DNA of 64,000 nucleotides from Betaproteobacteria bacterium (GCA_019136545.1 JAGVUA010000049.1:1096-65095), one strand, 5' to 3'. Numbered from the stretch's first letter, positions 12,881-62,136 are shown. Translations and numbers: made by a program. The notes: generated by a model not told the origin, from the letters alone.

Positions 12881-12905
12881 GAAAGTCAGTGGTGGCGACA
12901 CGCCG
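12881..12905 (+). repeat. GAAAGTCAGCC-hairpin element, copy 1 (GAAAGTCAGTGGTGGCGACACGCCG)
   Basis: Lies between the livG stop and livF ATG 12906. Confidence 0.7.
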
Positions 12906-13613
12906 ATGCTGCTCGAGATTGATGGGCTTTCCGCCGGTTACGGGCGTATCGAGGCGGTGCGCAACGTCAGCCTCGCCGTCGGCCGCGGCCAACTGGTGGC
13001 GCTGGTGGGCGCCAATGGCGCCGGCAAGACGACTTTGCTGCGGACGATCTCGGGTGTGCATCGGAGCAGCGGCGGACGCGTGCTGTTCGACGGCCGGGAC
13101 ATCACGCGCCATCGGCCGGCCGAGCGCGTCAGACTGGGCATCTGCCAGGTTCCGGAAGGCAGGCAGGTGTTCGGGCCGCTGTCCGTGGCGGACAACCTGC
13201 GGCTGGGGGCCTATATCGGCTGCGATCGTCGCGTGATCGCCGACGACATGGACCGCATGTACGCCTTGTTCCCGATTCTCAAACAGAAGGCGGCCTTGCC
13301 GGCCGGCACCCTGTCCGGCGGTCAGCAACAGATGTTGGCCATGGCGCGCGCGCTGATGGGACGCCCCCGCATGCTGCTGCTGGACGAGCCGTCGATGGGG
13401 CTGGCGCCGCTGCTGGTCGAGGAAATCCTCGCGGCGGTCAACGATCTGCGCAAGCAGGGAATCACGATCTTCCTGATCGAGCAAAACGCCCACGCGGCGT
13501 TGTCGATCGCCGACCATGGATATGTCATCGAAAGCGGGAAAGTGGTGCTTTCGGGTACGGGTGCTGAGTTATTGGGCAATGAACAGGTGCGTGCCGCGTA
13601 CCTGGGCATCTGA
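12906..13613 (+). CDS. LivF-family ABC ATP-binding protein
   Basis: MLLEIDGLSAGYG..., Walker A GANGAGKTT, LSGGQQQMLA, LLLDEPSMGL. An alternative ATG at 12852 would overlap livG and read the repeat at 12881 as TKVSGGDTP. Confidence 0.75.
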   Translation: MLLEIDGLSAGYGRIEAVRNVSLAVGRGQLVALVGANGAGKTTLLRTISGVHRSSGGRVLFDGRDITRHRPAERVRLGICQVPEGRQVFGPLSVADNLRLGAYIGCDRRVIADDMDRMYALFPILKQKAALPAGTLSGGQQQMLAMARALMGRPRMLLLDEPSMGLAPLLVEEILAAVNDLRKQGITIFLIEQNAHAALSIADHGYVIESGKVVLSGTGAELLGNEQVRAAYLGI

Positions 13614-13662
13614 AGGAGCCTCGGCTCGGGGCGGTTATTACAACTATCATCAAGGAGACAAC

Positions 13663-14820
13663 ATGAAAAAGTTTGCGCGACGTATTCTTGCGACCACGGC
13701 AGGTATCGCCATGGCTGCCGGCTTGGGAACGGCAGCCATGGCTGCCGAGCCGATCAAGATCGGTTCGGTGCTGTCGGCCACCGGCCCGGCAGCTTTCCTG
13801 GGCGATCCCGAGGCGAAGACGCTGCAGCTCTATGTCGAGAAGATCAACAAGGAGGGCGGCGTGCTCGGTCGTCCGCTGCAACTCGTTCATTACGACGACG
13901 GATCGGATGCCACCAAGGCCAATGCGTTCGGCAAGCGCTTGATCGAAGACGACAAGGTCGACATCATCGTCGGGGGGACCACCACCGGCTCCACCATGTC
14001 GATGGTGCCCCTGGTCGAGAAGGCCGAGGTTCCCTTCATTTCGCTTGCGGGCGCCGTCGTGATCGTCGAGCCGGTGAAAAAGTGGGTGTTCAAGACGCCG
14101 CATACCGATCGCATGGCGGCCGAAAAAGTTTTCGAGGACATGAAGAAGCGCGGCTTGACCAAGGTGGCGCTGCTTTCGGAAACCAGCGGCTTTGGCGCTT
14201 CGGGCAAAAAGGAGTCGGAAGCCATGGCGGCGAAGATGGGCATTACCTTGCTGGCCAACGAAACCTATGGCGCCAAGGATACCGACATGACGCCGCAGCT
14301 GACCAAGATCAAGAACACCCCCGGTGTCCAGGCCGTGTTCGTCTTCGGTCTCGGGCAGGGCCCGTCGGTGGTGAACAAGAATTTCCGGCAGCTCGGCATG
14401 ACGCTGCCGCTTTACCACGCGCACGGCGTCGCTTCGGAAGAGTTCATCAAGTTGTCCGGTCCTGCCGCCGAAGGGGTCCGCCTGCCGGCGGCGGCGCTGC
14501 TGGTGGCGAACAAGCTGGCCGCCAACGATCCGCAGAAGCCGGTCGTTATGGACTACCGCAAGACCTACGGGGACCGCTACAAGGAAGACGTATCGACCTT
14601 CGGCGGCCATGCCTACGATGGCCTGATGATCGCCGTGGATGCCATCAAGCGTGCCGGCAGCACCGACAAGGCCAAGGTGCGTGACGCCATCGAGGCCACC
14701 AAGGGCTACGTGGGTACCGGTGGCAAGGTGAACATGTCGCCCACCGACCACATGGGACTCGATCTTTCGGCCTTCCGCATGCTGGAAGTCAAGAACGGAG
14801 ACTGGACGCTGGTTGAGTGA
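13663..14820 (+). CDS. Periplasmic substrate-binding protein (Leu/Ile/Val-binding family), pad-linked
   Basis: AAGGAGA RBS. Signal peptide MKKFARRILATTAGIAMAAGLGTAAMA/AEP, then IKIGSVLSATGPAAFLG. Confidence 0.85.
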   Translation: MKKFARRILATTAGIAMAAGLGTAAMAAEPIKIGSVLSATGPAAFLGDPEAKTLQLYVEKINKEGGVLGRPLQLVHYDDGSDATKANAFGKRLIEDDKVDIIVGGTTTGSTMSMVPLVEKAEVPFISLAGAVVIVEPVKKWVFKTPHTDRMAAEKVFEDMKKRGLTKVALLSETSGFGASGKKESEAMAAKMGITLLANETYGAKDTDMTPQLTKIKNTPGVQAVFVFGLGQGPSVVNKNFRQLGMTLPLYHAHGVASEEFIKLSGPAAEGVRLPAAALLVANKLAANDPQKPVVMDYRKTYGDRYKEDVSTFGGHAYDGLMIAVDAIKRAGSTDKAKVRDAIEATKGYVGTGGKVNMSPTDHMGLDLSAFRMLEVKNGDWTLVE

Positions 14821-14916
14821 CAAGGCGGTGACGGGCGGCGGCGTTTGGCTGATGCGCCACCGCCCGGCATGAGCGATGTAATACACTGCGAACCTTCATT
14901 CTCATGCTTGACCCCG

Positions 14917-15870: not shown

Positions 15871-16809
15871 TCAGTGCCGGTCGACGACGCCCAGTATGCT
15901 GAAGTCAATCTCGCCGGTCGGCGTCATAACGGCGCTGGTGAAGCTGGTGCGGTCGGGGCGCAGCGAAGCCTCGAAGGTCCGACCTTGATCGCGGCTGGTC
16001 AGGGTGACTCCGGACAGCCCGAGCAGGCGCACGGTGCCATCCTGCGCTTGCCAAGCAGTGGTTAGCGACTGCTGGGTGCCACTGGGCACCTCTTGCCACG
16101 AACGGCCCCGGTCCTGACTGCGAAAGATGTGGCCGCGCAGCCCGGCGATCAACAGGCTGCCGTCGGACAAGGCCAGGCCCGTCCAGAAAGAACCTTTATT
16201 GCTGGTCGGTATCGCTTGCCATGTTTTGCCGGCATCTTCGGACCGCAAGACAAAGCCTCCTTCGGCCGCGATCAGCAGCAAGCCGTTGCGTCCGTCCACA
16301 ATGCTTTGCAGGTGTATTTCCCCGGCATCGCCTTCGACCAGCCGTCGCTCCTGCCAGGTATTGCCCCCGTCCGTGGTTTCCAGGGCCAGGCCGAATTGAC
16401 CGACCGCCAAGCCATGCTCGGCATTCTCGAACCATATCGAGAGCAGCACGCGTTCCTTGCCGGGCTCTTCGCGCTGTAGACGCCAAGTTTCGCCGCCATC
16501 GCTGGTGGCCAGGATCGTGCCGTCGTGGCCGGCCGCCCATCCGCGGCGAGCATCCAGGAAGAAAACGCTGGTAAGCGGAGCGCGGGTTGGCACCTGACTT
16601 TGTCGAAAGCTTTGGCCGTCGTCGGAAAGGATGATGGCGCCGTAATCGCCTACCGCGACGATGCGCGCGCCTGCCATGGTTGCCCCGAGAATCGGCGCCC
16701 GTGCCGGGTTGGCCAGATGTGGCGCCTGGCGCGGCGCCGCCTCGGCGGCAGGTGGCGATGCGGCGGCCATCGCGAGCGAGGACAGCATCAGGACCAGGAA
16801 TCGCTTCAC
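15871..16809 (-). CDS. BNR/Ycf48-like beta-propeller protein with signal peptide
   Basis: Repeated SxDxGxTW-type motifs (DGGETW, DGGNTW, DAGKTW, DRGRSW, DQGRTF). GTG 16809 lies 8 nt after AGGGAG. Signal peptide VKRFLVLMLSSLAMAAA. Confidence 0.7.
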   Translation of the reverse strand: MKRFLVLMLSSLAMAAASPPAAEAAPRQAPHLANPARAPILGATMAGARIVAVGDYGAIILSDDGQSFRQSQVPTRAPLTSVFFLDARRGWAAGHDGTILATSDGGETWRLQREEPGKERVLLSIWFENAEHGLAVGQFGLALETTDGGNTWQERRLVEGDAGEIHLQSIVDGRNGLLLIAAEGGFVLRSEDAGKTWQAIPTSNKGSFWTGLALSDGSLLIAGLRGHIFRSQDRGRSWQEVPSGTQQSLTTAWQAQDGTVRLLGLSGVTLTSRDQGRTFEASLRPDRTSFTSAVMTPTGEIDFSILGVVDRH

Positions 16810-16824
16810 ACCCAATACTCCCTA

Positions 16825-19200
16825 CTAATGGCCAATGACCGAAGCGCGTACCGGCCCGCGGCGCGGAAACACGGCTTCCAGAACCGCGGCGAAGGCGGGC
16901 AGCACCGTGATGGCGGTCAGCATGTTCACGATGAACATGAACGTCAGCAAGATCCCCATGTCGGCCTGGAACTTCAGATCCGAAAGCGCCCAGGTGGCAA
17001 CGCCGACCGAAAGGGTAATGGCTGTAAAGACGGTGGCGATGCCGACTTCGCGCAAGGTTGCGCGCAGTGCGAGCAGCATCGGCTCCTGCCGGGAGAGGTG
17101 CACCAGCAGGCGGTTGTAAATGTAAAACGCATAATCTACGCCAATGCCGGTGGCCAGCACCATGACCGGTAGCGTGGCGACCGTCAGGCCGATGTCGAGC
17201 GTCTTCATGAACCAGTAGCCCAGGAACGTGGCCAGCGTCAGAGGCAGGCAGCACGCCAGCATCGCCCGCCAATCGCGATAGGCGATGAGCACCAGCGCCA
17301 TGATCGCGAGGTATACGTAGATGATCATGGGCAATTCCCGCGATTCCACTTCCTCGTTGGTCGCGGCCAGCACGCCGATATTGCCCGAGGCGAGCCGCAC
17401 CTTCACGCCGAGCGGCGTGGGGTCATACGCCTGCCGGAAGCTCTTGACGGCCTGGATGGCCGCTCCGATGGTGGTGGCCCGGTGATCGGCCAGATAGATG
17501 TTGGCGGCCATCATGGTGCAGGCGCGGTTGAACAAGCCGCCGGCCTCGGGGAGATAGCCCACCGCCACTTGCAGCGCCTTGCTGTCGCGCGGGAGCGCCG
17601 TCAACTTCGGATTGCCTTCGTTTAGACCGGCATTGGCAAACTTGGCCAGGGCAGACAGCGACGATACCGACAGGACGCCCGGCACCTGGGCCATGTGCAA
17701 GGTGAACTGATCGATGTAGTCGAGAATCGGGAAGCTGTTGCAGGAGTCGTTGGGCGTTTCGAAGACGACCGTCAGGACATCCATGCCCAGGTCGAAGCGC
17801 TTGACGATGTTCTCCGTGTCGATGTTGTAGCGGGCGTCGGGCCTGAGTTCGGGCGCGCCCGGCTGCAAGGCGCCGATATGGCGGCCGTGGCTTTGCCAGA
17901 TGGCCACCGCCAGCAGCACCGCCGCCACGGCCAGTACCGTGCCGGCATGGCGGAGATCGGCGATCACACCCAATCGCTCGATGATTCTGCCGCGCTGAGC
18001 CTGCAGGGCCTCGAGCCGCAGCGCGTAGTCCTGGGAGAACTTGAAATAGGAGGCTACCAGCGGCAACATGATGAGATTGGTGATGATCTTGTAGCCCACG
18101 CCGATGGAGGCGGTGATGCCCAGTTCGCGAATCATCGGTATCGGGATCATTACCAGCGTGATGAAGCCGACGAAAGCGGTCACCAGGGCCAGCGAACCCG
18201 GCACGAACAGGCTGGAGAAACTTTCGCGACTCGCTTCGACGGAGCTGGCGCCGCGCGCCACAGCCTTGGTGATGGCATTGATTTGCTGCACGCCATGGGA
18301 GACGCCGATGGCGAATACCAGAAAAGGTACCAGGATGGCGAGGGGATCGAGACCATAACCGAGCAAAGTCAGCGTGCCGAATTGCCAGACCACCGAGGTC
18401 ATCGAGCATAGCAGGGGTAGCAGCGTGAGCAGGATCGAGCGGCAGTACCAATAGACGGCTAGCGCCGTCAGCAGGGTGGCCAACGCGAAGAACTGCGCTA
18501 CGCCGCGGGCGCCGTCGGCGATATCGCCGATCTGCTTGGCGAAGCCGATGATTTCGATGGCATGATCGGGCGATTCGAGCTTGCCGCGCAGGTCCTTCTC
18601 GAGCCGGGTGGCAAGATCGAGATAATCGAGCTTGCGGTGGGTGTTGGGGTCCTCCTCCAGCAGGTCGGCGACGATCATCGCCGCCGTACCGTCGTTGGCG
18701 ACCAGGCTTCCGATGTAACCGCCGCGGATGGCGCGATCCTGAATCCGGGCAATATTGGCTTCGTCGAGCGCATCGGGCGTGATGTTGCCACCGATGACGT
18801 CTTCGGCTTCGAAGCCCTCCTCGGTCAACTCATAGACGCGCGTGTTGGGCGTCCACAGAGACTGTACGGAGCGCCGATCGATGCCGGGCAGGAACAGCAC
18901 GGCTTCGGTGACTTCGTGCAGCTTTTTAAGCGATGGCGCGGTCCAGATGCTGCCTTGGCGGGCGCGCACCACGACCATGACGCGGTTCGAACCGAACAGC
19001 TGCGTACGGTATTGGAAAAACGTATCGGTGTATTCGTGCCCGATGGGCAACTGCTTGTCGAAGCCCGCCGACATGTGCAGACGGGTCGCCAGCACGCCCA
19101 TGCCTATCGTGAAGACGGCGAGGATGAGCAGGGTGGGCAGACGAAACCGAAAGAAAAAAGATTCCAGGCGCTTGACCGCGCCAACTATGCCGCCGCTCAT
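16825..19200 (-). CDS. RND-superfamily (MMPL/HpnN-like) inner-membrane transporter
   Basis: About 790 aa. Two repeats of a large soluble loop plus a hydrophobic bundle. Partner genes DUF1302/DUF1329/BNR. ATG 19200 (TTG 19209 also possible). Confidence 0.75.
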   Translation of the reverse strand: MSGGIVGAVKRLESFFFRFRLPTLLILAVFTIGMGVLATRLHMSAGFDKQLPIGHEYTDTFFQYRTQLFGSNRVMVVVRARQGSIWTAPSLKKLHEVTEAVLFLPGIDRRSVQSLWTPNTRVYELTEEGFEAEDVIGGNITPDALDEANIARIQDRAIRGGYIGSLVANDGTAAMIVADLLEEDPNTHRKLDYLDLATRLEKDLRGKLESPDHAIEIIGFAKQIGDIADGARGVAQFFALATLLTALAVYWYCRSILLTLLPLLCSMTSVVWQFGTLTLLGYGLDPLAILVPFLVFAIGVSHGVQQINAITKAVARGASSVEASRESFSSLFVPGSLALVTAFVGFITLVMIPIPMIRELGITASIGVGYKIITNLIMLPLVASYFKFSQDYALRLEALQAQRGRIIERLGVIADLRHAGTVLAVAAVLLAVAIWQSHGRHIGALQPGAPELRPDARYNIDTENIVKRFDLGMDVLTVVFETPNDSCNSFPILDYIDQFTLHMAQVPGVLSVSSLSALAKFANAGLNEGNPKLTALPRDSKALQVAVGYLPEAGGLFNRACTMMAANIYLADHRATTIGAAIQAVKSFRQAYDPTPLGVKVRLASGNIGVLAATNEEVESRELPMIIYVYLAIMALVLIAYRDWRAMLACCLPLTLATFLGYWFMKTLDIGLTVATLPVMVLATGIGVDYAFYIYNRLLVHLSRQEPMLLALRATLREVGIATVFTAITLSVGVATWALSDLKFQADMGILLTFMFIVNMLTAITVLPAFAAVLEAVFPRRGPVRASVIGH

Positions 19201-19287
19201 GTCAGACAATCGTTATCGTGAGCGGCGGGGCGCGCTTGGCACGCCCCGCCGCAATGTGAAAAGTCGGATGACAACCGCGATCCAGGA

Positions 19288-21132
19288 TTAGAAGGTATAG
19301 GAAACCATCGCGCTCAGGATGTCGCGGTCGCGCATCATGTTCATGTTGCCGCCACCGAAGAACGTGGTGTAGCCGATGCCGACCTTCCATTGATTGTGAT
19401 AGTCGAAGTTGAGGTTGAGGGCAACCGCCTTGCGACCATCGACGAAAGGCAGCGCGTTGGGGCTCGTGCCATGGACATCGTGATAGTAGTCGATCATCGG
19501 CGTCATGGTCCATCCGGACCCGAAGATGTTGGCGTAGGTCAGGCCCACTTCCGCGACATAGCCCCACGAGGTCTTGGTGGGGAGTTCGTAGTTGTTGAGC
19601 AGATAGGGCACACCGCCGGAACGATCAAGGTTCGGGTAGTGCGTCACGGCCAGTTCACCCAGGAAGTAGCCTTCGGCTGCGCCAAGCGGTGCGGTCCACT
19701 CCGGCGAGAACAGCCGGAAGCCCGTCAAGTGCGCTTGCCACTTCTTCTCGGTGACATAGCCGTCGACCATGGTTTCGGCGCCATTGGCCGCCACCGCTGC
19801 TGCGGCAAGGCTGTAGCGTCCCCCGAACGGCACGGTCGGATCGATGGCAACGCTGTCTCGCGGACGGTATGACAACTCGGCGCCAACCGCCCAGTCGCCC
19901 GCCTTGGTATTGAGCGAAACGCCGAAAAGGCTGCGGTTCTCGCCATATTGCTCGACGGCCGCTGAAATCACCTGGTTGGCCGGATCGGCAATACAGCCGG
20001 CGCTCCCGCCAATGCAGTAGGACTTGAAGCCGATGAATGGGATCTTGTCGTGATAACGGATGAAGTAAGCGGCGTACTCCGTATCGCCACCCGTGGGCTT
20101 GTAACGCAGGTTCAAGCCGAACTGACCGCTGTTCTTGGGCATGTCGCGCTGGACGGGAACGACCGTTCCGGCACCGATCAGATACTCCATGGTACGACCG
20201 CGCGTTGGATCGAAGTCGCCCAGCGTTCCTGCCGGAGCCGGAAAGCCGGCGCTGGTGAAGATGGGCGAGAAAGCGGCCAGGTTGTTGGGCACCGAGGTCG
20301 TGACGAAAGCGCCACGCCTGCCGCCCCTGCCCAGAAAGTCGGCGGAAGACCAATAGGTTCCCGCCGGATCGAAGATGAACCTGTTCCAGTGAAACTGATA
20401 ATAGGCCTCGGTCGAGAAACCTCCGCCGAGCCCGGTGGACAGCGAGATCATGGGCGCCGGGACGAAAACTTCCTTCAACTGGGCGCCGGGAATATGGATT
20501 TTGCGCAGATCAAGGGCGTTGATCGAATTGACGCCGCCGATGATGAAAATGTCCTCACCCCAACTGATGACCTGATTGCCGAACTTCAGTTTGGCGTTCT
20601 GCCCGCCCAGCGAAAACTCCTTCGACAGCCACAAGTCGAGAAGCGAGACGTTCTTCTCCATCGCGTCTTTGGCGTCGGGGTGCAAGGGCGTGCGCCTCGT
20701 GTCGTCGGCCAGGAAATCCGACGACCAGGTAAAACGGCCGAGCGCCGACCAATTGCCCTGTTCCTTCAGGAATAGCTCGTGCGTGCCCTTGAGCACGGCG
20801 GAAAAAACCCTGCCCTTCTTGTAGTTGAGGTCGCCGTCGTCGGTTTGGGCGTAGTTGAAGTCGGGGACCGAGGCGATGCCGCCGCCGGGGCCGTTGACGC
20901 GCTCGCCCAACGTGCCGGTGGTGGCGACGTTGCCTCCCGAGTCGTTGCTGATGATCGATCGGTCGGGCGACTGCAGGCGCATTTGCACGCCGAAGGAAAT
21001 GGTCGAGTCGAAGGTGCCGGTAATGCCGTTCTCCATCTCGAACTTGAAGGCTTGCGCCGGCAGGCTGGCACCAAGGCCGATCGCGGCGATCATCGTTGCC
21101 AGCGGCGACCAGCGGGTCGTAATGTTCTTCAT
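19288..21132 (-). CDS. DUF1302-like outer-membrane beta-barrel protein
   Basis: GGGGAGA RBS before ATG 21132. Signal peptide ending ...SLPAQA/FKFE. Alternating aromatic/Gly-rich strands. C-terminal ...MVSYTF, an OMP signature. Confidence 0.7.
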   Translation of the reverse strand: MKNITTRWSPLATMIAAIGLGASLPAQAFKFEMENGITGTFDSTISFGVQMRLQSPDRSIISNDSGGNVATTGTLGERVNGPGGGIASVPDFNYAQTDDGDLNYKKGRVFSAVLKGTHELFLKEQGNWSALGRFTWSSDFLADDTRRTPLHPDAKDAMEKNVSLLDLWLSKEFSLGGQNAKLKFGNQVISWGEDIFIIGGVNSINALDLRKIHIPGAQLKEVFVPAPMISLSTGLGGGFSTEAYYQFHWNRFIFDPAGTYWSSADFLGRGGRRGAFVTTSVPNNLAAFSPIFTSAGFPAPAGTLGDFDPTRGRTMEYLIGAGTVVPVQRDMPKNSGQFGLNLRYKPTGGDTEYAAYFIRYHDKIPFIGFKSYCIGGSAGCIADPANQVISAAVEQYGENRSLFGVSLNTKAGDWAVGAELSYRPRDSVAIDPTVPFGGRYSLAAAAVAANGAETMVDGYVTEKKWQAHLTGFRLFSPEWTAPLGAAEGYFLGELAVTHYPNLDRSGGVPYLLNNYELPTKTSWGYVAEVGLTYANIFGSGWTMTPMIDYYHDVHGTSPNALPFVDGRKAVALNLNFDYHNQWKVGIGYTTFFGGGNMNMMRDRDILSAMVSYTF

Positions 21133-21167
21133 CGTCTGTCTCCCCAATCAGTCAGATGCAATACGGA

Positions 21168-22523
21168 TCAACGTTCGCCGGCGCGCCGAAGTTCGTCGGG
21201 CTCGAAGCGCTTCGGGTCGATACGGCCCTCTGCACCCGCCAGCCAGTCCGTCGACTTCGACTCCTGTGTGGCGTTTTCCGCCATATAGCGGTTGACGTTG
21301 AGATCCCAGGACATGAACTCCTGGCTGACGCAGGCGCCCAGTTCTACGGCGGGATAGATAGAGGCTTCCATCACCCGCCAGAGCTTGCCCTGGGCATCGT
21401 AAAGATCCGCCGCCATGATCATCCAGGTGTCTTCATCGATGTAGAAGGCGCGCTTGGCGAACATGTTGCGCATGCCTTGCTTGATCGTGGCTTCGACCTT
21501 CCAGACGCGGTGCAGCTCGTAGCGCATCAAGTCCCGATTTGGATAGAGGCCGCCATAAATCTCCGACAACTTGCGCTTGGCGACGAACTTGAAGCTGTTG
21601 TAGGGAATGTACATCTCCTGCTTGCCCACCAGCTTCCAGTTGTAGCGGTCGAGCATGCCCGCAAACATCGGGTATTGATCGGCGGTCTCCAGGTTTTCGT
21701 ATCCCGGGATCGGATTGTCATACTCGAAGGCAGGCAGCCGCCTGACGCGACGTTGCCCGGGAAAGTACATCCAGGCGTCGTTGCCCTTGTCCATGAAGTA
21801 GTGCGCCATGATGACCTCGCCCGTGCGCGACGCAGGTGCCGTCGCCACGTTTAGGATCTTCATCTGCACGTCCCCGACATCGTCGATCGACTTGGCCTTG
21901 GCCGATGCAAATGGCGTGACCACCCACTGATCCTGGGCAAGCCCATAGAAACTGCCATCGGGATTGATGAAGTTGGTCTGGTAAAACTCTATGCGCCCTT
22001 CGCCCTGCCAGCGGAGGCGGTGATTCCAGATGGCCTCGGCGCCGTTTTTCGGAATCGGGAAGGGGAAGCCGCCGCCGACCGCCTGCGCCAGGTTGTCCTT
22101 GCCGTCGGTGGTGAGCTTGGCCACCGTGGCATTGAGGCGGGACTGGGTATACACCGAGTCCGGATAGCCGCAACTGCGCTGGGTCGGATAGACATCCATC
22201 CGATAGCCCTTGCGAGTCTTGATCAACTCAATGGCGCCTTCGGAAAGTTTGTCCTTGTATTTATCGACGTTGCTGGCATCGATGGAGAACATCGGCTTGT
22301 CGGCTGCGAAGGGATCGACGCGGGCATCGCCGAGCTTATGCTTGCCTTTCGGCAACCCACCTTTCCATTCCGGAATGCTGCCATCCTTGTTGCCGGCACG
22401 TTCGGCGCCGACGGGCGTCAGGTCCTTGCCCAAGCGCGCGACCTCCGGTTCGCCGACTGCCGCCAGCCCGTGCCCAGCGGCGGCCACGAGGCCGATGGTC
22501 AGCAGATATCGTGTCATGCTCAT
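21168..22523 (-). CDS. DUF1329-like (LolA-fold) periplasmic/lipid-carrier-type protein
   Basis: Signal peptide MSMTRYLLTIGLVAAAGHGLAA. Hallmark RLGKDLTPVGAERAGNKDGSIPEWKGG near the N-terminus. Confidence 0.7.
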   Translation of the reverse strand: MSMTRYLLTIGLVAAAGHGLAAVGEPEVARLGKDLTPVGAERAGNKDGSIPEWKGGLPKGKHKLGDARVDPFAADKPMFSIDASNVDKYKDKLSEGAIELIKTRKGYRMDVYPTQRSCGYPDSVYTQSRLNATVAKLTTDGKDNLAQAVGGGFPFPIPKNGAEAIWNHRLRWQGEGRIEFYQTNFINPDGSFYGLAQDQWVVTPFASAKAKSIDDVGDVQMKILNVATAPASRTGEVIMAHYFMDKGNDAWMYFPGQRRVRRLPAFEYDNPIPGYENLETADQYPMFAGMLDRYNWKLVGKQEMYIPYNSFKFVAKRKLSEIYGGLYPNRDLMRYELHRVWKVEATIKQGMRNMFAKRAFYIDEDTWMIMAADLYDAQGKLWRVMEASIYPAVELGACVSQEFMSWDLNVNRYMAENATQESKSTDWLAGAEGRIDPKRFEPDELRRAGER

Positions 22524-22574
22524 GTCTTGTCCCCTCGATCTGGTTGTGTTCTCTGCCTGATGCGTGTTGTGCTG

Positions 22575-23006
22575 CTATTCGATGGTCACACCGATGTTCT
22601 TGAGTTGCCCGACAACCTCTGCGCGAAATGCCGGGACGTCGTCCAGCGGCCGGCTGCGCAATTTGGCTACTTCCAACTCCGAATAGCGCGGAGCCCCGCG
22701 CGGAATCTCGTCGGGGCTGAATTCCTTGAGAATCCAGTTCAACAACTCGGCAACCGCGCCGTTCGGCAAGGCGGACTGCGAGGTCCCTGGCACCTGGACC
22801 AGGAAATCGCGTCCGTCGGGAACGCGCAGAAAATGACCGAGACTGTTGCGCATGGTTGGAATGCCGGCACCCGGACTGCCCGAACCGTCGATGCCGTGGC
22901 AGCCCGAACAATGCAGCATGTAGTTGGCCTGGGGCGAGCCGGCATCGGCGCCATGAACCGTACCGGCCAATGCCAGCATGCAAATACCGATGGAGATGCT
23001 TTTCAT
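22575..23006 (-). CDS. Monoheme cytochrome c (143 aa)
   Basis: Signal peptide MKSISIGICMLALAGTVHG. A single CSGCH. ATGA overlap with the upstream cytochrome gene. The 352-aa track ORF was trimmed. Confidence 0.75.
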   Translation of the reverse strand: MKSISIGICMLALAGTVHGADAGSPQANYMLHCSGCHGIDGSGSPGAGIPTMRNSLGHFLRVPDGRDFLVQVPGTSQSALPNGAVAELLNWILKEFSPDEIPRGAPRYSELEVAKLRSRPLDDVPAFRAEVVGQLKNIGVTIE

Positions 23007-23476
23007 CGCAATCCTTTTGCCAATTTGGCGCGCAGCGCGTAAGTCAGCCCTGGCGACCCGCCTCGGGAGCGCATCTGGGCAACCCACTGCGACGTGAGCC
23101 AGTCTGCATCGCTGATACCATTGAACTGCGCAAGCACGTAGCGCAGCACTGCCGCAATATCTTCGTCGGCCAGACCGGCGAACGAAGGCATCCGCCCAAG
23201 AAAGCGCATGCCTTCCATTTCTACCATGCCGGTCATGCCCGTCAATGGCACGCTGACCAGGTATTCGCGTCCGCTGGGCTGGTCGACATAGCGGCCGACG
23301 GTATTCTGCAAAGGCGGTGCGACGCCCTGTGCTCCGCGGCCGTCGGGCTGATGGCAGACCTGGCAATGCTCGGTATAGAGCGCTTTGCCCCGGACCGCCT
23401 GATCGGCGAAGGTTGGTACCGGCACGGTCATGGTCATGGCGATGATGCAGGTCGATACAGATACCGCAACCCGCAT
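23003..23476 (-). CDS. Monoheme cytochrome c (157 aa)
   Basis: A single CQVCH and a distal Met (GRMPSF). Starts 3 nt after the stop of the TTQ small-subunit gene. Confidence 0.75.
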   Translation of the reverse strand: MRVAVSVSTCIIAMTMTVPVPTFADQAVRGKALYTEHCQVCHQPDGRGAQGVAPPLQNTVGRYVDQPSGREYLVSVPLTGMTGMVEMEGMRFLGRMPSFAGLADEDIAAVLRYVLAQFNGISDADWLTSQWVAQMRSRGGSPGLTYALRAKLAKGLR

Positions 23477-23479
23477 GAC

Positions 23480-24004
23480 TCAGCCCCGCTTCTCCGCTAC
23501 GCCGACGATTGCGGCGACCGTGCAATGGTAGGTGTTGCTGCTGTTGGCCATGCACCAGTTGACGTCGTTGTGCACCCCCATGCGATAACCCGGGCGTTCG
23601 CCTTCGTTGCGGTTGCAGAAGCACTGGCCGCACATCGTCACGCCACAGCAGTCGTTGTAGCTGATCAGATAGTCCTTGCCATCATTGGGATTGTGGCAGG
23701 TGCCGACCCAGGTCACCTTCGAGACTTCCGTTCCGGGCGGGCACGAGGACACGCTGCCACCGCAGCAGCTGCAGATGAAGCCGTCGAGCGCGCAGTGACG
23801 CCAGTATTCGCAACTGGTTTCGTCGTTGATCTTGCTTTTGGGTTTTCCGCTGGCGGCCTTGGCGACGCGGTCGAACGGCAGTACCGGCAGCAGCACCGCG
23901 GAGCCCAGCATCAGCTTGCCCAGGCGTGCCACGGCGCTACGCCGCGATGCGGACTGGGCAACGCGCCTCGACTGCTTTTCAAAGAAATCGTCGAACCATT
24001 TCAT
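23480..24004 (-). CDS. mauA: TTQ amine dehydrogenase small (light) subunit, MauA/AauA family
   Basis: CEYWRHCALDGFICSCCGGSVSSCPPGT...VTWVGTCHNPNDGKDYLISYNDCCG...DVNWCMANSSNTYHCT aligns by eye with the methylamine dehydrogenase light chain, including both TTQ Trp positions. Arg-rich Tat-like leader. Confidence 0.85.
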   Translation of the reverse strand: MKWFDDFFEKQSRRVAQSASRRSAVARLGKLMLGSAVLLPVLPFDRVAKAASGKPKSKINDETSCEYWRHCALDGFICSCCGGSVSSCPPGTEVSKVTWVGTCHNPNDGKDYLISYNDCCGVTMCGQCFCNRNEGERPGYRMGVHNDVNWCMANSSNTYHCTVAAIVGVAEKRG

Positions 24005-24624
24005 GAAACGCTCCTTGAAGCATGCGCCGTTGCATCGGCATGATCGATGAATTCCTGGATGGAGGCAACACCCGCCTCCTTGGCGGTAAAGAGACTTTCC
24101 AGATGCTCGCGCGAATTGATCAGCCCCTTGGCCCGCAGGCGTCCCGCCTCGTCGATCAATACCGCGTAGGGCAGCTTGCCGACATGGAAGGTGATGGCCA
24201 GTTGGCTCGACAAGACGTACGGAAAGCTGCTCAGCTCGGCGCTGCGATAAAAGGCGAGATGCTCGGGCAGTTCGCCATCACTGGCGAGCACGATGTCGAG
24301 CCAGTCCTTCTCGGCGGTGCGAATCGACTTGAGGATCGGCAGCAGTTTCTTGCACACCGGACAGGTCGGCGAGAGGAAGAACAGCAACTGACTTCTGCCC
24401 AGCGCGGATCCGACATGGATTTCGTCGCCGCCGGCGATCGCCGATAGCGTCATGATCGGGCTGGGATCGCCGACCTTCGGTCCCTGATCGATCATCAGCG
24501 CGCCCATCGGCGCGATGCGTTCGTAGAGCACGCCGATTTGACGGGAAAGTGCCACCACGATCACCACCAGCGCCAGGACAACCAGCCACAGAACGATATT
24601 GGAAATGATGAGTGCTTCCTGCAT
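24001..24624 (-). CDS. mauD: MauD-like thioredoxin-fold accessory protein
   Basis: N-terminal TM helix. CPVC redox motif in LLFFLSPTCPVCKKLLP. ATGA overlap with mauA. Confidence 0.8.
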   Translation of the reverse strand: MQEALIISNIVLWLVVLALVVIVVALSRQIGVLYERIAPMGALMIDQGPKVGDPSPIMTLSAIAGGDEIHVGSALGRSQLLFFLSPTCPVCKKLLPILKSIRTAEKDWLDIVLASDGELPEHLAFYRSAELSSFPYVLSSQLAITFHVGKLPYAVLIDEAGRLRAKGLINSREHLESLFTAKEAGVASIQEFIDHADATAHASRSVS

Positions 24625-24637
24625 GCCCTGTCCTCGA

Positions 24638-25183
24638 TTAGCGAAAAACCGGCGTGGCCGGCCGATTGGCCAGCAACTGATTGAAAACGACGTACAAGCC
24701 GAACAGTGCCAGCACGGTGGCTGTAACGGTCAGGTAATCCAGCCAGACCAAACCGCGTTCGATGTCGCCATGCATCACGACCAGAACGGCGGCCATCAAG
24801 GCCAGATTGCGCGATACCAAGCCCCACGACAGCGGTTGATGCGATAGCCCGCCGCATCCGCAATCGATTTCGCGCCGCCCCCTGAGCAGGTTGACGACCA
24901 CGGCGCCCGTTGCCAGCGACAGCACCAACAAGGCTGTCCCGCCGCCCATCGTGGCGGTTTTCGGAAGCAGCAGCATGACGCCGGCAGCGGCCTCCATGAC
25001 GGGCAAACAGACCGCCAGCACCGGCACCCACGAAACGGGCAACAGCCGATAGTTTTCGACCGCGGCGCCGAAAACCAGCGGATCGCGCAGTTTCTGCCAG
25101 GCACCGAAGACCAGCAGGATGGCCAATGTCGCCGCCAGCCCGTGTACGGCAACTGGGTCGAAAACGAGCGAAAAAACGGCCAT
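24638..25183 (-). CDS. mauE: MauE/DoxX-like membrane accessory protein
   Basis: Four hydrophobic helices. CGCGG motif. TAATG overlap with the large-subunit gene. Confidence 0.75.
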   Translation of the reverse strand: MAVFSLVFDPVAVHGLAATLAILLVFGAWQKLRDPLVFGAAVENYRLLPVSWVPVLAVCLPVMEAAAGVMLLLPKTATMGGGTALLVLSLATGAVVVNLLRGRREIDCGCGGLSHQPLSWGLVSRNLALMAAVLVVMHGDIERGLVWLDYLTVTATVLALFGLYVVFNQLLANRPATPVFR

Positions 25184-26334
25184 TACTGGACTTCCAGCAA
25201 AGTCGGCGTGTCTCCAGGCACAGGGCCCGACAGAACTTTCTTCAGGCGGGCACCGCCTTCAAACACCGTGATGCTGGGCCGTTCGATGGTAAAGGCGAAG
25301 AGGCGAGGATTTTTGTCCTGGCTCACTGCGACGCCGCTGATTTCGTGCACCTTGACTCTGGACAGCCGCGCCTTGCCGGCAACGTCGAACGCCCAGATTT
25401 CGTGCGCTGGATCCTTGTGGCTGCCTTCGCGGCCCTTGGGATGCATGGTGACGTAGGCGATACCGCTTTCGACATGCAGGGCCACGGGTTGGGTGCCGCC
25501 CGGCCGCCAACCCTGCTTGACGTCCTGCGCAGTTACCATCGGCCAGGGGGGCTCGGCGACGGCGGCTTCCTGGGCGATGTTGACCGACTGCCAGTTCCCC
25601 TTGAAGGAAATGAAGTGGTACACGTCGCCCGCTTGTGCGCCCGTGATGAACAGCGCGTCATCGTCGGGATCGAAGAAGCGCGCGCTCTTCTTCTTGGTGG
25701 TCGGGTTGCCGTCCCGATCGTAGCTCACCGTCAACATTGTGCCGTCGCCGCACAAGGTGGCGAAGCGGTTGACCGATTTCGCCGGATAGACGCCAAAGCA
25801 ACCCGGCGTCTGGATTTCGGCAACCATTTTTTCCTGGCGGCGATCGACGATGCTGATCGAGGTGGCCGGAGTGGCGTTTTGTACCAGGATGAAGCGCCCG
25901 TCCGCCGAAGTGCGCATCGTTGCGAGCGTCGGCAATGCCAGGGCATGGCGTGCCGGATAGGGAATCTCGGCTTTCAGTTTGAGCGTGGCGGCATCGAAGA
26001 CGTTGATTTCTTCATGACGCTCGCCGCGATTGACCTTGGTGAAATAGGTAATGACGGCATAGATCTCGGATCGATCCGGCGCAAGCGTGGTCTGCGCGAA
26101 ACTGCCGGTGGATATCATGCCCTCGAGCTTCAGATTGCGGCCGTCGATGATGTACATGCGACCGTCCGGAAGGTGAGGCAGGGTGACGTCGGTGAAATAA
26201 AGACGGTAAGGCGAGGCTGGCGGCAGCGCGGCCATCGTCGTGATTTGCTCGACGGGCAACTCCGCCCCTACGGGCATCGCAATACCGGCTGCCCAGAAAA
26301 ATACCGGACACGCTCGCAGAAAGCGCCGAAGCAT
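25183..26334 (-). CDS. mauB: TTQ amine dehydrogenase large (heavy) subunit, MauB/AauB family
   Basis: AAGGAGG RBS and a signal peptide. 383 aa of propeller-type sequence (RLYFTDVTLPHLPDGRMYIIDG...FILVQNATPATSISIVD). First gene of the B-E-D-A order. Confidence 0.8.
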   Translation of the reverse strand: MLRRFLRACPVFFWAAGIAMPVGAELPVEQITTMAALPPASPYRLYFTDVTLPHLPDGRMYIIDGRNLKLEGMISTGSFAQTTLAPDRSEIYAVITYFTKVNRGERHEEINVFDAATLKLKAEIPYPARHALALPTLATMRTSADGRFILVQNATPATSISIVDRRQEKMVAEIQTPGCFGVYPAKSVNRFATLCGDGTMLTVSYDRDGNPTTKKKSARFFDPDDDALFITGAQAGDVYHFISFKGNWQSVNIAQEAAVAEPPWPMVTAQDVKQGWRPGGTQPVALHVESGIAYVTMHPKGREGSHKDPAHEIWAFDVAGKARLSRVKVHEISGVAVSQDKNPRLFAFTIERPSITVFEGGARLKKVLSGPVPGDTPTLLEVQ

Positions 26335-29719: not shown

Positions 29720-29744
29720 AAAGTCAGCCGTGGCGGCGCGCCGC
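29719..29744 (+). repeat. GAAAGTCAGCC-hairpin element, copy 2
   Basis: GAAAGTCAGCCGTGGCGGCGCGCCGC. Its first base is the G of the EF-G paralogue's TAG stop. Confidence 0.8.
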
Positions 29745-29771
29745 TTGCGAGCCGCCGCGAGTCTTTCTACA

Positions 29772-30530: not shown

Positions 30531-31799
30531 ATGAAGCCCGTGAAATGCGGGCTGGCGGCAATGGCTGCGCTTTGCGCGCTGACCGTGCGGGCGGACGTTT
30601 CGTCGTCGCCCCTGCCCGGCGGCAGCGTCGAGTCGCTGCTTGCCCTTGCTCGCCAGCAGAGCCCCGAACTGATCGCCTTGCGCCTGGAGGCCGACGCGGC
30701 GCGCGAACGCGCCGCCGCCAGCGGCGCCTTGCCGGACCCGACCGCGCGCATCGAGTGGCGCGATTTCACCAATGAGATGTCGGGCGGCAGCGCGACGCTG
30801 GTGCCGTCGCGCGTCGGCAGCACCAAGTACACGCTGATTCAGCCGCTGCCTTGGTGGGGCAAGCGCGACTTGAAGCGCGCATCCGCCGAGGCCGAGGCCG
30901 AAGCGGCGGCGGCCGGCAGCGACGCCGGCTGGCTCGAACTGGCGGCGCGCATCAAGGCCGCCTACGCGCTCGATTACGCGCTGGCCCGCCAGCTGGCCCT
31001 GAGCCGCGAAGTGGCCGACCTGCTCGACCGGCTGGAAGCGATCGGCCGCAACCGCTATGCGCACGGCCTGGCGCCGCAGCAGGACGCGATCCGCGCGCGC
31101 GTCGAGCATACCGCCCTGCAGAGCGAGATCGTCCAGACCGAGAACGAGCGCCACCATGCGCAGGTCCGCATCAACGGTCTGCTGGCGCGGCCCGCGCATG
31201 CCGCGCTGGCCGAGCCGCAGGCGCCGCGCGCGCTGCCGGCGACTCTGGACCACGCGGTGCTGGCGGAACGGCTGCGCGCGAACAACCCCGGCCTGTTCGC
31301 CGACGAGGCGCGCATCCGCGCCGCCGAAAAGAATCGCGACGCCGTCTACCGCAACCGCTATCCCGACCTGGCGCTGGGCATTTCGCCGATCCAGACGCGC
31401 AACCGCGTCAGCGAGTGGGAGCTGATGCTGGAGCTCAACATTCCGCTGCAGCAAGGCAGCCGGCGCAGCCAGGAGCGCGAGGCCGAGCGCATGCTCGAAG
31501 CGGCGCGCGCCAAGCGCGACGCGGGCGCCAATCGCCTCTTGACGGAACTGGCCGAGAACGTTTCGGCCTTCGAAGCGGCGCAGCGCATCGAGCGGCTGAC
31601 GCGCAGCGAGCTGCTGCCGCAGGCCGAGCTGACCTTCCAGGCGGCGCTGGCCGGCTACGAGAACGGCAAGGTGGATTTCGCGACGCTGCTCGACGCGCAG
31701 CGACAGATCCGCAAGGCGAAACAGGACGTCATCAAGGCGCAGGCGGAACAGCAATTGCGGCTGGCCGAGATCGAGAAGCTGACGGGAGGCGAGATATGA
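30531..31799 (+). CDS. cusC: Outer-membrane efflux protein (TolC family), CusC
   Basis: 422 aa. Signal with Cys (AALCAL). Coiled-coil repeats typical of OEP proteins. Precedes cusBA. Confidence 0.8.
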   Translation: MKPVKCGLAAMAALCALTVRADVSSSPLPGGSVESLLALARQQSPELIALRLEADAARERAAASGALPDPTARIEWRDFTNEMSGGSATLVPSRVGSTKYTLIQPLPWWGKRDLKRASAEAEAEAAAAGSDAGWLELAARIKAAYALDYALARQLALSREVADLLDRLEAIGRNRYAHGLAPQQDAIRARVEHTALQSEIVQTENERHHAQVRINGLLARPAHAALAEPQAPRALPATLDHAVLAERLRANNPGLFADEARIRAAEKNRDAVYRNRYPDLALGISPIQTRNRVSEWELMLELNIPLQQGSRRSQEREAERMLEAARAKRDAGANRLLTELAENVSAFEAAQRIERLTRSELLPQAELTFQAALAGYENGKVDFATLLDAQRQIRKAKQDVIKAQAEQQLRLAEIEKLTGGEI

Positions 31800-33346: not shown

Positions 33347-33347
33347 G

Positions 33348-44199: not shown

Positions 44200-44224
44200 G
44201 AAAGTCAGCCGTCGCGGCACGCGC
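44200..44224 (+). repeat. GAAAGTCAGCC-hairpin element, copy 5 (left flank of vapBC)
   Basis: GAAAGTCAGCCGTCGCGGCACGCGC, 15 nt after the thioesterase stop. Confidence 0.8.
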
Positions 44225-45184: not shown

Positions 45185-45210
45185 GAAAGTCAGCCGTCGC
45201 GGGACGCCGC
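45185..45210 (+). repeat. GAAAGTCAGCC-hairpin element, copy 6 (right flank of vapBC)
   Basis: GAAAGTCAGCCGTCGCGGGACGCCGC, 3 nt beyond the dinB stop codon on the opposite strand. Confidence 0.8.
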
Positions 45211-52293: not shown

Positions 52294-52319
52294 GAAAGTC
52301 AGCCGCGGCGGTACGCCGC
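52294..52319 (+). repeat. GAAAGTCAGCC-hairpin element, copy 7
   Basis: GAAAGTCAGCCGCGGCGGTACGCCGC, 12 nt after the ybhR-like stop. Identical to copy 8. Confidence 0.85.
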
Positions 52320-52321: not shown

Positions 52322-52798
52322 CTATTGCGGACTGGCGGGCGCCGGCGCCGCGGGCGTTGCCGGGGCGGCCGCCGCCGGGCTAGCGGGAGCGGGCGTCACT
52401 GGGGTGAGCGGCGGCGCGACCTTGACCGGGGCGGGCGAGGTGGGCTGTTCATCCAGCGCGCGCGCGCCGTTGACGAAGTACTCGGTCTCGCCGAAGCAAG
52501 AAGTCGGAATGAACTTGTGCTGGGCATAAGACAGCACGATGCGCTTGCCGGCCAGTGCGTTGATCTGCTGCGCGACGGCGTCGTCGCGGACCGTGAACTC
52601 GAACCTGTCCGGGATTGCGCCGGGCATGGTCACCATGGCGATTTCCCCTTCCCAGGTCTTGCACAGCCAGCCCTTGCGCGAGAACTTCTGCACGTAGCCG
52701 GCGCGCTCGCCTTCCGAATAGCTCCAGGTCAGAGTCAACCAGACCCAGCCGACGGCGGCCAGCAGCACCAGGCCGAGGAATATGAAGAAAGCGCGCAT
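52322..52798 (-). CDS. Hypothetical N-terminally anchored protein with Pro/Ala-rich C-terminal tail
   Basis: TM helix MRAFFIFLGLVLLAAVGWVWL. A globular ~100-aa core. Tail PAPVKVAPPLTPVTPAPASPAAAAPATPAAPAPASPQ. No family recognised. Confidence 0.5.
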   Translation of the reverse strand: MRAFFIFLGLVLLAAVGWVWLTLTWSYSEGERAGYVQKFSRKGWLCKTWEGEIAMVTMPGAIPDRFEFTVRDDAVAQQINALAGKRIVLSYAQHKFIPTSCFGETEYFVNGARALDEQPTSPAPVKVAPPLTPVTPAPASPAAAAPATPAAPAPASPQ

Positions 52799-59901: not shown

Positions 59902-59971
59902 GGAGCGGGCGCAGCCCGCGAACCACCGTCACCCCCTTCCTCGGGAAGGGGGGCGGGGGGAGGGGGGTCTG
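59902..59971 (+). repeat. C-run/G-run ~70-nt element, copy B, directly upstream of the livF-like GTG
   Basis: ...CCGTCACCCCCTTCCTCGGGAAGGGGGGCGGGGGGAGGGGGGTCTG-GTG. Hairpin CCCCTTCC/GGAAGGGG. Confidence 0.7.
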
Positions 59972-60775: not shown

Positions 60776-60872
60776 TGAGCGCGGATCGTGCCCATTGCCC
60801 ATCCGCTTGCGCGCCGATGGCCCGCGGCGCAGTTCCGCCATTACGCCACGCGGGGCGGTCTTGGGAGTGTTG

Positions 60873-62105
60873 ATGGCTAGCCATTTCGACCATTTGGAAA
60901 CCCGGTCTGCCGAGGCGCGCGAGGCCGACCTCATGGCCCGCCTGCCGGCGCATGTCGCCCGGGCGCAAAGTCAGTCGCCGCACTACGCCGAGACGCTGGC
61001 CGGCATCGATGCCGCCATGGTGAATTCGCGCGCCGCGCTGGCCAGGTTGCCGGTGGTGCGCAAGCATCAACTGCTCGCGTTGCAGAAGCGGCGTCCGCCG
61101 CTGGGCGGACTGGCGGCCACGCCGGTATCGGAACTCGCCCATGTCTTTGCCTCGCCGGGTCCGATCGCCGATCCTGAAGGCCGGGGCGAGGACTGGTGGC
61201 GCTTTGCGCGCGCCATGCACGCGGCCGGCATCCGCGCCGGCGACCTGGTGCACAACACCTTTTCCTACCATTTCACGCCGGCCGGCTTCATGGTCGACGG
61301 CGGTGCGCGGCGCCTGGGCTGCCCGGTGTTTCCGGCGGGCGTCGGCCAGACGGAAATGCAGGTGCAGGCGATCGAAACTTTCCGGCCGGCGGCGTACGTC
61401 GGCACGCCCAGCTTTCTCAAGATCATCTTGGAGAAGGCCGACGAGCTCGGCGCCGACGTGTCCTCGCTGCGCACGGCCATGGTCTCCGGCGAGGCCTTGT
61501 TCCCGGCGCAGCGGCAGTTCTTCGCCGGCCGCGGGCTGGCGGTGTTTCAGGTCTATGCCTCCGCCGATTTGGGCCTCATCGCCTATGAGACCGATGCGCG
61601 CGAAGGCATGGTGCTCGACGAGGCGCTGATCCTCGAGATCGTCCGTCCCGGCACCGGCGATCCGGTGGCCGACGGCGAAGTGGGGGAGGTAGTGATCACC
61701 AGTTTCAATGCCGACTATCCGCTGATCCGTTTCGGCACCGGTGATTTGTCGGCCATTCTGCCGGGGCCGTCGGGCTGTGGCCGAACCAATGTCCGCATCA
61801 AGGGCTGGATGGGGCGCGCCGATCAGACCACCAAGGTGAAGGGCATGTTCGTCCATCCGGAGCAGGTGGCGGCGGTCATCGAGCGCCACCCGCGGATTGT
61901 CCGCGCGCGGCTGGTGGTTACCAACCCGGACGGCAACGACCTCATGACGATGCATTGCGAGGGCGAGGGCGATGCGATGCTCGAGGGGGCGATCGCCGAA
62001 AGTATTCGCGACATCACCAAGCTGCGCGGCGAAGTATCGTTCGTCGCACCGGGCAGCCTGGCGAACGACGGCAAGGTCATCGAGGACGCGCGCAAATACG
62101 ACTGA
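60873..62105 (+). CDS. PaaK-like (phenylacetate-CoA ligase family / F390-synthetase-like) protein with a degenerate P-loop
   Basis: PaaK-like length and layout (...LARLPVVRKHQLL...YVGTPSFLKIILEKADELG...). FASPGPIADPE stands where PaaK has ASSGTTGxPT. Confidence 0.7.
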   Translation: MASHFDHLETRSAEAREADLMARLPAHVARAQSQSPHYAETLAGIDAAMVNSRAALARLPVVRKHQLLALQKRRPPLGGLAATPVSELAHVFASPGPIADPEGRGEDWWRFARAMHAAGIRAGDLVHNTFSYHFTPAGFMVDGGARRLGCPVFPAGVGQTEMQVQAIETFRPAAYVGTPSFLKIILEKADELGADVSSLRTAMVSGEALFPAQRQFFAGRGLAVFQVYASADLGLIAYETDAREGMVLDEALILEIVRPGTGDPVADGEVGEVVITSFNADYPLIRFGTGDLSAILPGPSGCGRTNVRIKGWMGRADQTTKVKGMFVHPEQVAAVIERHPRIVRARLVVTNPDGNDLMTMHCEGEGDAMLEGAIAESIRDITKLRGEVSFVAPGSLANDGKVIEDARKYD

Positions 62106-62110
62106 GCCGG

Positions 62111-62136
62111 GAAAGTCAGCCGCGGCGGTACGCCGC
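62111..62136 (+). repeat. GAAAGTCAGCC-hairpin element, copy 8
   Basis: The same 26-mer as at 52294, 5 nt after the PaaK-like stop. Confidence 0.85.

Follow-up and report, generated by a model that had tools for sequence, protein, structure and literature searches.

A bipartite 25-bp DNA word propagated by substitution in uncultured Rhodocyclaceae: a candidate uptake-type tag

A 64,000-nucleotide stretch of a Betaproteobacteria bacterium genome (GCA_019136545.1, JAGVUA010000049.1:1096-65095; the whole stretch is referred to here as the window) carries many copies of a 25-bp word that recurs throughout the genomes of a clade of uncultured Rhodocyclaceae. That this is a real repeat, a signal at the level of the DNA that propagates by substitution, is strongly supported, and an uptake-type function, akin to that of the DNA uptake sequences (DUS) of Neisseriaceae and the uptake signal sequences (USS) of Pasteurellaceae, is a candidate explanation for it. 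Alignment of 140 non-identical copies defines the unit as (G)AAAGTCAGCC-RY-GGCG-NNA-CGCC-R, which may also be written GAAAGTCAGCC-R-Y-GGCG-N-N-A-CGCC-R. When mismatches are scored over the 23 specified positions of this 25-nt consensus, the window holds 14 copies with at most four mismatches, as compared with 0.07 expected from third-order Markov simulations. The original prediction of a real, over-represented and unnamed repeat in this DNA is borne out.

The word and its lineage

The window copies with zero, one, two, three and four mismatches number three, three, one, four and three, respectively. The 11-mer GAAAGTCAGCC has six exact matches, all on the plus strand (29719, 31936, 44200, 45185, 52294 and 62111), and 13 matches with at most one mismatch, against 1.07 expected, a number reached in none of 100 shuffled sequences. 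Eight strong copies had been listed originally. Six of them do contain the exact 11-mer, and the minus-strand copy at 37739-37715 is indeed CAAAGTCAGCC, but the copy at 12881 begins with GAAAGTCAGTG, which differs from the 11-mer at two positions, though GGCGACACGCCG is kept downstream. The six copies beyond these eight are at 6287(-), 23039(+), 32521(-), 36220(+), 41059(-) and 60966(+).

The edges of the repeat are sharp, the information content of the 140-copy alignment being at background level outside positions 1-26. Its strongest part is the core A4-GTCAG-9; a second box, A20-CGCC-24, follows at a fixed spacing with a weaker GGCG in between, and A20 is kept in 124 of the 140 copies even though the search pattern did not impose it. 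In a set of 145 copies unselected for the stem that the GC boxes could form, the least variable positions are G5-T6-C7-A8-G9 (zero to two deviations), Y13, C21 and G22, the weakest is position 1 and the most decayed part is the 5′ arm, positions 14-17. A set of 264 copies was used for strand and pairing counts. The word is a lineage-specific, sequence-defined, bipartite motif of 25 bp of duplex DNA. Scans of the window against Rfam and for tRNA and tmRNA gave no matches, and a search of the literature for the word and its reverse complement returned unrelated primer matches only and no description.

Species-representative genomes were scanned with the pattern GAAAGTCAGCCNNGGCGNNNCGCC, the figures drawn from the matches listed being lower bounds. 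The original prediction had named local duplication, or a frequency no higher than base composition predicts, as grounds for abandoning the repeat; among the matches listed, however, the pattern was found in at least 106 stretches. Some 15 assemblies, which bear the labels Rhodocyclaceae, Rhodocyclales or Betaproteobacteria, account for nearly all of these, and the tiles of a single assembly contain as many as 25 strict copies. Since many assemblies of Rhodocyclaceae and Rhodocyclales carry the word, its copies are no product of local duplication. In the selected tiles of the five best-sampled genomes, one copy falling outside the search pattern is met per 3.7-6 kb, which is similar to the window. 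Counting both strands, the overall density is about one per 3-6 kb, or roughly one every 4-5 kb; by extrapolation, a genome would hold about 1000 copies. The strict pattern had no match in a collection of viral contigs.

An unbiased control was provided by 80 loci (1.06 Mb) chosen solely by homology to the CusA-like pump of the window. The closest relative, L117, which is syntenic with the window (89% protein and 82.7% nucleotide identity), has eight copies in 19.5 kb, L120 has a single match with four mismatches, and the word is absent from the other 78 loci (1.02 Mb). The background in the CusA-selected loci is about one per Mb, as against about 220 per Mb in the window. Among relatives selected by DinB, one with 85% identity carries a copy in another location, L112 (75% identical) has one copy and the other four loci recovered have none; synteny was poor at these loci, and the comparison showed turnover of copy positions as well as relatives without the word. 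No variant word was found by k-mer counting in motif-free relatives. The repeat is thus both genome-wide and clade-wide in one clade of uncultured Rhodocyclaceae. The window, too, stems from an uncultured organism, being part of a 1.49-Mb JGI metagenome contig (3300048574, Ga0498941_000005) that recurs in several ENA samples.

Within this clade, the preferred bases at positions 18-19 differ from genome to genome while A20 is fixed: GCA predominates in CAZRRI01 and JADJAS01, ACA in JAEHDA01 and DASRXN01, and ATA or GTA in JAHJPX01, JACRIZ01 and PMIH01. These genome-specific preferences may represent dialects of the word. Two short motif-bearing contigs are found in bins of other taxa, namely L008 (Rhodoferax sp. 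UBA4127) and L009 (Steroidobacter sp.). The former is 96% identical to L049, a tile of JADJAS01, and is therefore likely to have been mis-binned.

Origin and placement of the copies

Comparison with relatives indicates how the copies come about. No indels were found with respect to motif-free orthologues, which have the same length and a related sequence, and no inserted peptide was seen in CusA as compared with E. coli CusA, in CusB and the IcmF-like protein as compared with outgroups, or in ABC ATPase and EF-Tu-like proteins as compared with their homologues. The word does not conform to in-frame insertion elements of the Rickettsia palindromic element type, since there is no extra peptide segment with respect to homologues. 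Some copies coincide with ordinary family motifs, such as the 'SLKVSRG' that precedes Walker A in ABC ATPases and the 'GxVxxGD' of EF-Tu domain 2. Sites that can be polarised by outgroups are the most informative. In CusB, the peptide RTLTFR is encoded by CTGACTTTC in all relatives, which amounts to a natural seed of 10 nt; the codons upstream have changed from SGETKR to NGVSR only in the window and L117, creating the 3′ box, ACACGCC, at the right spacing. At window site 32151, the outgroups have GTCAAGACCGAG, the window has GTCAAGACGGTCGTGGTGGAACGCCG (six mismatches) and L117 has GTAAAGTCAGTCGTGGTGGCACGCCG (three mismatches); the 3′ half dates from the common ancestor and the 5′ half was added later in L117, by synonymous and non-synonymous changes.

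A further directional series is offered by L117 site 17523, at which GACGGCCAGCTCACGCCCCATGCCA in the outgroup L118 corresponds to GAAAGTCAGCTGTCGCCGCACGCCA in L117. All six substitutions, synonymous and non-synonymous, go toward the consensus, the flanks are almost unchanged, and the mismatches that are left are those whose removal would force drastic amino-acid changes. The same directional gain toward the consensus, relative to the outgroup, is seen at the IcmF-like site 41059. Where the window is syntenic with L117, six of six copies have orthologues that differ from them by 0-6 nt, often at different positions, and L117 has two extra copies. At the strain level, the sequences compared around the EF-G paralogue were nearly identical. 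Match quality is continuous from zero to four mismatches, and copies turn over between relatives. The word is not a mobile element. Its copies are instead assembled in place by point substitution, where the sequence already resembles the word and the protein tolerates the change, and the system, as reconstructed from orthologous sites, shows directional gain, retention and turnover.

Gene calling relied on a codon-usage model for which these sequences themselves served as the training set. On this basis, 88 of the 140 copies (63%) lie in coding sequence and 52 (37%) between genes, an approximately fourfold intergenic enrichment; in the window, eight of the 14 copies are inside coding sequence and six are intergenic. 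Intragenic copies are found both sense and antisense to their genes and use each of the five frames that contain no stop. The sense frames read KVSRGDTP (43 copies), ESQPWRHA (seven) and KSAVAARR (seven), and the antisense frames GVSPRLTF (15) and RRVATADF (13); the sixth frame holds a TGA and is used only in the three cases in which the gene ends within the motif. The copies are spread uniformly along the length of genes, with no positional preference. Given both orientations, five frames and this uniformity, the conserved entity is a DNA word and neither a peptide nor an mRNA element. A conserved KVSRGDTP peptide is accordingly rejected, five frames being in use. A Shine-Dalgarno sequence with start codon (GAAAG-N6-RTG) is rejected as well: many copies have C13, all frames are used, and the copy at 6287 lies within the 3′ end of a gene. 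A sigma-54 promoter (GGCACG-N4-TTGC) fits the 29719 copy alone, positions 27-30 being devoid of information.

The original description of copies mostly glued to the 3′ ends of operons does not hold for the majority, which is coding, yet it captures a genuine property of the intergenic ones: 60% of these lie within 6 nt of a stop codon, as compared with 27% for random placement in the same spacers, a value as high being reached in none of 5000 simulations. In six cases the stop codon runs into the beginning of the motif, in five of them by 1-2 nt (T-GA or TA-G). The sense orientation that had also been proposed is not upheld. Of 25 intergenic copies in tandem gene contexts, 16 are antisense and nine sense to the flanking genes, and among the 21 that are closer to the stop than to the next start, 13 are antisense and eight sense; intragenic copies, for their part, take both orientations.

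Tight inverted pairs are rare, with four among the 264 copies, i.e. about 3% of copies paired (L016 4472-4511, L047 5411-5450, L014 3383-3438 and L022 6578-6639). In two of them, the GGCG-N3-CGCC palindrome is common to both copies, which overlap by 10 nt and form a near-perfect 40-nt palindrome; of the other two, one is arranged tail-to-tail with a 6-nt gap and one head-to-head with a 12-nt gap. A 45-nt tandem duplication with two perfect copies is present at L074 7044-7113.

Copies in the window and their surroundings

The intergenic copies of the window are all on the plus strand. The one at 12881-12905 (two mismatches, GAAAGTCAGTGGTGGCGACACGCCG) fills the spacer between the livG-like and livF-like genes, from the stop at 12857-12859 to the next start at 12906. 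The copy at 29719-29743 (one mismatch), whose first base is the G of the TAG stop of the EF-G paralogue, has a perfect orthologous counterpart at L117 6475. It is followed on the minus strand, at 29749-29767, by a degenerate inverted partner, GAGCCGCCGCGAGTCTTTC, and the two give a hairpin of about 50 nt (29717-29769, -31 kcal/mol, z -2.9) directly after the stop, an inverted arrangement that is only partly retained in L117. Further copies are located 15 nt past the stop of the 4HBT thioesterase gene (44200-44224, three mismatches), 136 nt past the PIN/vapC stop, with that of the convergent dinB 4 nt away (45185-45209, one mismatch), 12 nt past the ABC-2 permease stop, with that of the convergent gene 52322-52798 at a distance of 3 nt (52294-52318, perfect), and 5 nt past the stop of the AMP-binding (PaaK-like) gene (62111-62135, perfect). 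The 26-mers at 52294-52319 and 62111-62136 are identical, as had been noted originally. The distances first given to the stops of the EF-G paralogue, thioesterase, ABC-2 permease, PaaK-like and dinB genes, and the position in the livG/livF junction, were likewise accurate, and Pfam backs the identification of the EF-G paralogue, 4HBT thioesterase, ABC-2 permease, AMP-binding protein, livG/livF-like ATPases, vapBC and dinB.

Of the intragenic copies, four are antisense to their genes: 6263-6287 (-, three mismatches, GAAAGTCGGCCATGGCGGAGCGCCT) at the 3′ end of the PFOR-like gene 5086-6321, the weak copy 23039-23063 (+, four mismatches, GTAAGTCAGCCCTGGCGACCCGCCT) in the 3′ part of the cytochrome c gene 23003-23437(-), 32497-32521 (-, four mismatches) in the CusB-like gene, where it is seeded on the conserved RTLTFR peptide, and 41035-41059 (-, three mismatches) in an IcmF-like gene for a fused methylmalonyl-CoA mutase/MeaB, at which the outgroup L118 has a partial match of the same length. 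The sense copies comprise the perfect 31936-31960 (+) in the CusB-like gene, which encodes KVSHGGTP in a variable N-terminal linker (RGGASHGDAAQ, of equal length, in the outgroups), 36220-36244 (+, three mismatches) in a hypervariable loop of the CusA-like pump with no insertion relative to E. coli CusA, 37715-37739 (-, one mismatch) in the HATPase_c region of a hybrid histidine kinase (KVSRGDTP), and the weak 60966-60990 (+, four mismatches) in the AMP-binding (PaaK-like) gene.

Two neighbourhoods deserve mention. A block at 15871-26277 has a lower GC content (0.60-0.62, against about 0.65 elsewhere) and minus-strand genes, the products of which include BNR/YCF48-like, MMPL/RND-like transporter, DUF1302, DUF1329 and cytochrome c proteins, methylamine-dehydrogenase light and heavy chains, MauE and a redoxin; it holds the single weak copy at 23039 and is perhaps of horizontal origin. 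At 30531-36521 lies a cusCBA-like operon for heavy-metal efflux, which encodes an OEP, CusA and a CusB that ends in a CusF domain. Because it carries three internal copies, this operon, although a commonly transferred gene set, has probably long been resident in the lineage. Finally, other 11-mers that recur seven to eight times in the window (GGCGCCGGCAAGA and overlapping words, at sites that include liv-like and further ABC ATPase genes) appear on translation to be Walker-A (GAGK) codons and no DNA repeat.

Candidate functions of the word

An uptake-signal-like word was one of four candidates put forward originally, and it is the one that we now favour, if tentatively and at somewhat short of even confidence: the word probably behaves like DUS and USS, i.e. 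like an uptake-biased tag spread by molecular drive. Its restriction to a lineage, its presence on both strands and in genes as well as spacers, the frame bias, the enrichment at gene ends, the substitutional origin and the sharing among related species, with possible dialects, match the genomic signature of these sequences, by analogy with which a mechanism may be sketched. Duplex DNA bearing the word would be taken up preferentially by way of a sequence-specific receptor in the uptake machinery. Once such fragments had recombined with their homologous loci, alleles closer to the consensus would spread in the population, and copies would build up over time wherever they are tolerated, as in variable protein loops, frames encoding harmless peptides and the first bases after stops. 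Intergenic copies at gene ends, singly or in inverted pairs, might have a secondary role as 3′ hairpins. DUS and USS have so far been reported only in Neisseriaceae and Pasteurellaceae, both host-associated and culturable; about half of the known ones lie in predicted terminators, and their use of frames is biased (bioRxiv 10.1101/2025.10.24.684340). The word might, then, belong to a third family of DNA uptake sequences, evolved independently in uncultured environmental and wastewater Rhodocyclaceae and read as a long bipartite 25-bp word by a putative receptor, a more specific proposal that we hold with a little less confidence.

The likeness to DUS extends to many features. These, too, are lineage-specific words found on both strands, inside and between genes, that accumulate in permissive positions, show a reading-frame bias with one frame barred by a stop codon, are enriched at gene 3′ ends, form occasional inverted pairs and are shared among related species with variant 'dialects'. 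They are, however, 10-12-mers. No homology is apparent with Neisseria DUS: when the two are aligned on the core, only a CTG/CAG triplet and some two to three bases are common, which was judged to be at chance level. USS resemble the present word in being extended (about 30 bp), with a core that is strongly conserved and weaker flanking parts at fixed spacing, in evolving by point substitution at orthologous and permissive sites, in occupying both strands and perhaps in the action of some copies in terminators; they differ in that their sequence is unrelated, whereas the word described here has a GC-rich context, a lower density and a host clade that is betaproteobacterial and uncultured, with putative competence.

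Several points weigh against an uptake tag. The bipartite word is 25 bp long, as compared with the 9-12-bp cores of DUS and USS, its density is several-fold below theirs (near one per kb), and the proportion of copies in inverted pairs is far smaller than in DUS. The copy census outside the window draws on tiles that were chosen because they carry the motif, and the genome scan gives lower bounds only. Pure uptake drive does not obviously predict that copies abut stop codons so tightly in both orientations, and a high-copy binding site under selection would leave nearly the same genomic signature. The link between word and uptake, like the receptor, is drawn from analogy, and we found no report of natural transformation, competence or uptake sequences in Rhodocyclaceae in the literature searched. 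Because its length and density depart from those of DUS and USS and a receptor-mediated uptake bias is putative, the word is not assigned to them; in most other features tested it is DUS/USS-like.

Alternatively, the word may be a high-copy site for a lineage-specific chromosomal DNA-binding protein that has no part in DNA uptake, be it an organizer of the nucleoid, a topology factor, or an insulator or roadblock at gene boundaries, with copies kept by selection at each site. A bipartite 25-bp motif with the dyad GGCG-N3-CGCC does resemble a protein operator, the abutment of stop codons in both orientations suggests a role at gene boundaries, and orthologous copies are kept between the window and L117. 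The predominance of intragenic copies with no preference along the gene would nevertheless be hard to square with a boundary or roadblock function, the turnover of copies is fast, many variants have two to four mismatches, and selection on each of so many sites would be costly. To our knowledge, no nucleoid protein recognizes as many as about 1000 sites of 25 bp with high specificity, and we regard this explanation as unlikely, although it should be taken seriously. Another form of molecular drive, such as biased mismatch repair, short-patch gene conversion or a process linked to a methylase or nuclease, would also account for substitutions that build up copies in place, on either strand and whether the DNA is coding or not, within a restricted lineage. 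A precedent discussed in this sense is the cyanobacterial HIP1 (GCGATCGC), which probably spreads by substitution. HIP1 is likewise an abundant, conserved word of coding and non-coding DNA, the function of which, according to a recent report, is only beginning to be elucidated (10.64898/2026.06.24.733823). It differs from the present word in being an 8-bp perfect palindrome read by methylases; an asymmetric, far more information-rich word of 25 bp is well above the length of any known repair or methylation target, partial conversions that leave protein-constrained mismatches argue against one-step replacement of a patch, and no associated enzyme is known. Such a drive seems to us improbable. 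Mobilization as a repetitive extragenic palindrome (REP or REPIN) by a RAYT (IS200/IS605-like) transposase, or as another miniature mobile element tolerating in-frame insertion, was among the original candidates and is now very improbable. REPs do share with the word a short GC-rich palindrome with a conserved 5′ extension, a copy number in the hundreds, within which range the word falls, and a location of some copies at gene 3′ ends, and the few inverted pairs (L014, L016, L022 and L047) would fit. They are, however, extragenic, mostly paired and transposed, whereas the copies described here are mostly intragenic, single and born by substitution from orthologues of equal length, without indels; the palindrome is not maintained as a structure, and the 140-copy alignment shows neither a conserved flank nor a target duplication.

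Hairpins also lie at the heart of the idea, again an original candidate, that the word is an RNA element, namely a U-tract-less terminator or a stabilizing 3′-end structure of operons. This could apply to the intergenic subset only, which does lie few nucleotides from stops and includes six window copies, and the motif has a GC stem of 5-6 bp. In the 145 copies unselected for it, however, the core of this stem is uncompensated: pair 14-24 is G-C in 113 copies, a compensated C-G in one and mismatched in 23, pair 17-21 is A-C in 16 and pair 16-22 is T-G in 19, and of the four window copies with C14, a single one carries the compensating G24. The sole hint of pairing comes from the outermost pair, 13-25 (T-A 30, T-G 77, C-G 22, C-A 0), an association that is real. 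Single copies fold like shuffled sequence (z about -0.9), the exception at 29719 being due to its degenerate inverted partner. There is no T-run after the motif (no T enrichment past position 26), terminator-like sites do not exceed expectation (16, against 12.3 in shuffles), copies that follow stops take both orientations, most copies are coding, and the non-pairing AAAGTCAG is the most conserved part. RNA structure as the conserved feature is therefore rejected, and the 'GC-hairpin element' first proposed is not primarily an RNA structure; the chance that the word acts as an RNA element is slim. The possibility of a word polar with respect to replication or recombination, of the Chi or KOPS type, is more slender still than that of a mobile element. 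It might be suggested by the 10 of 14 window copies on the plus strand, given a GC skew that is positive throughout the window. This excess follows gene orientation and the favoured sense frame. Among the 140 copies, the check on replication orientation that had been proposed found the motif strand to be unrelated to GC skew (mean -0.005, t-test p=0.11; 45% of copies on the positive-skew strand, binomial p=0.27). Along a 2-Mb contig with sign-changing skew, copy strands are mixed throughout with no switch of orientation, and the 264 copies divide into 140 plus and 124 minus. The word has no replication or transcription polarity.

Should the uptake reading prove wrong, the synonymous and non-synonymous rewriting of sequence toward a DNA consensus would still represent clear selection or drive acting on DNA across protein-coding genes. 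The word provides a cheap lineage marker for the binning of contigs and could flag foreign DNA in these genomes. If the word is indeed an uptake tag, it would constitute a third, independent tag for self-DNA, in free-living uncultured Betaproteobacteria, and sequence-biased exchange of DNA would be more widespread than the two known families imply. Its long bipartite structure would then offer a contrast for the study of how receptors read DNA. It would also suggest that species-restricted gene exchange shapes the Rhodocyclaceae that are abundant in wastewater and groundwater.

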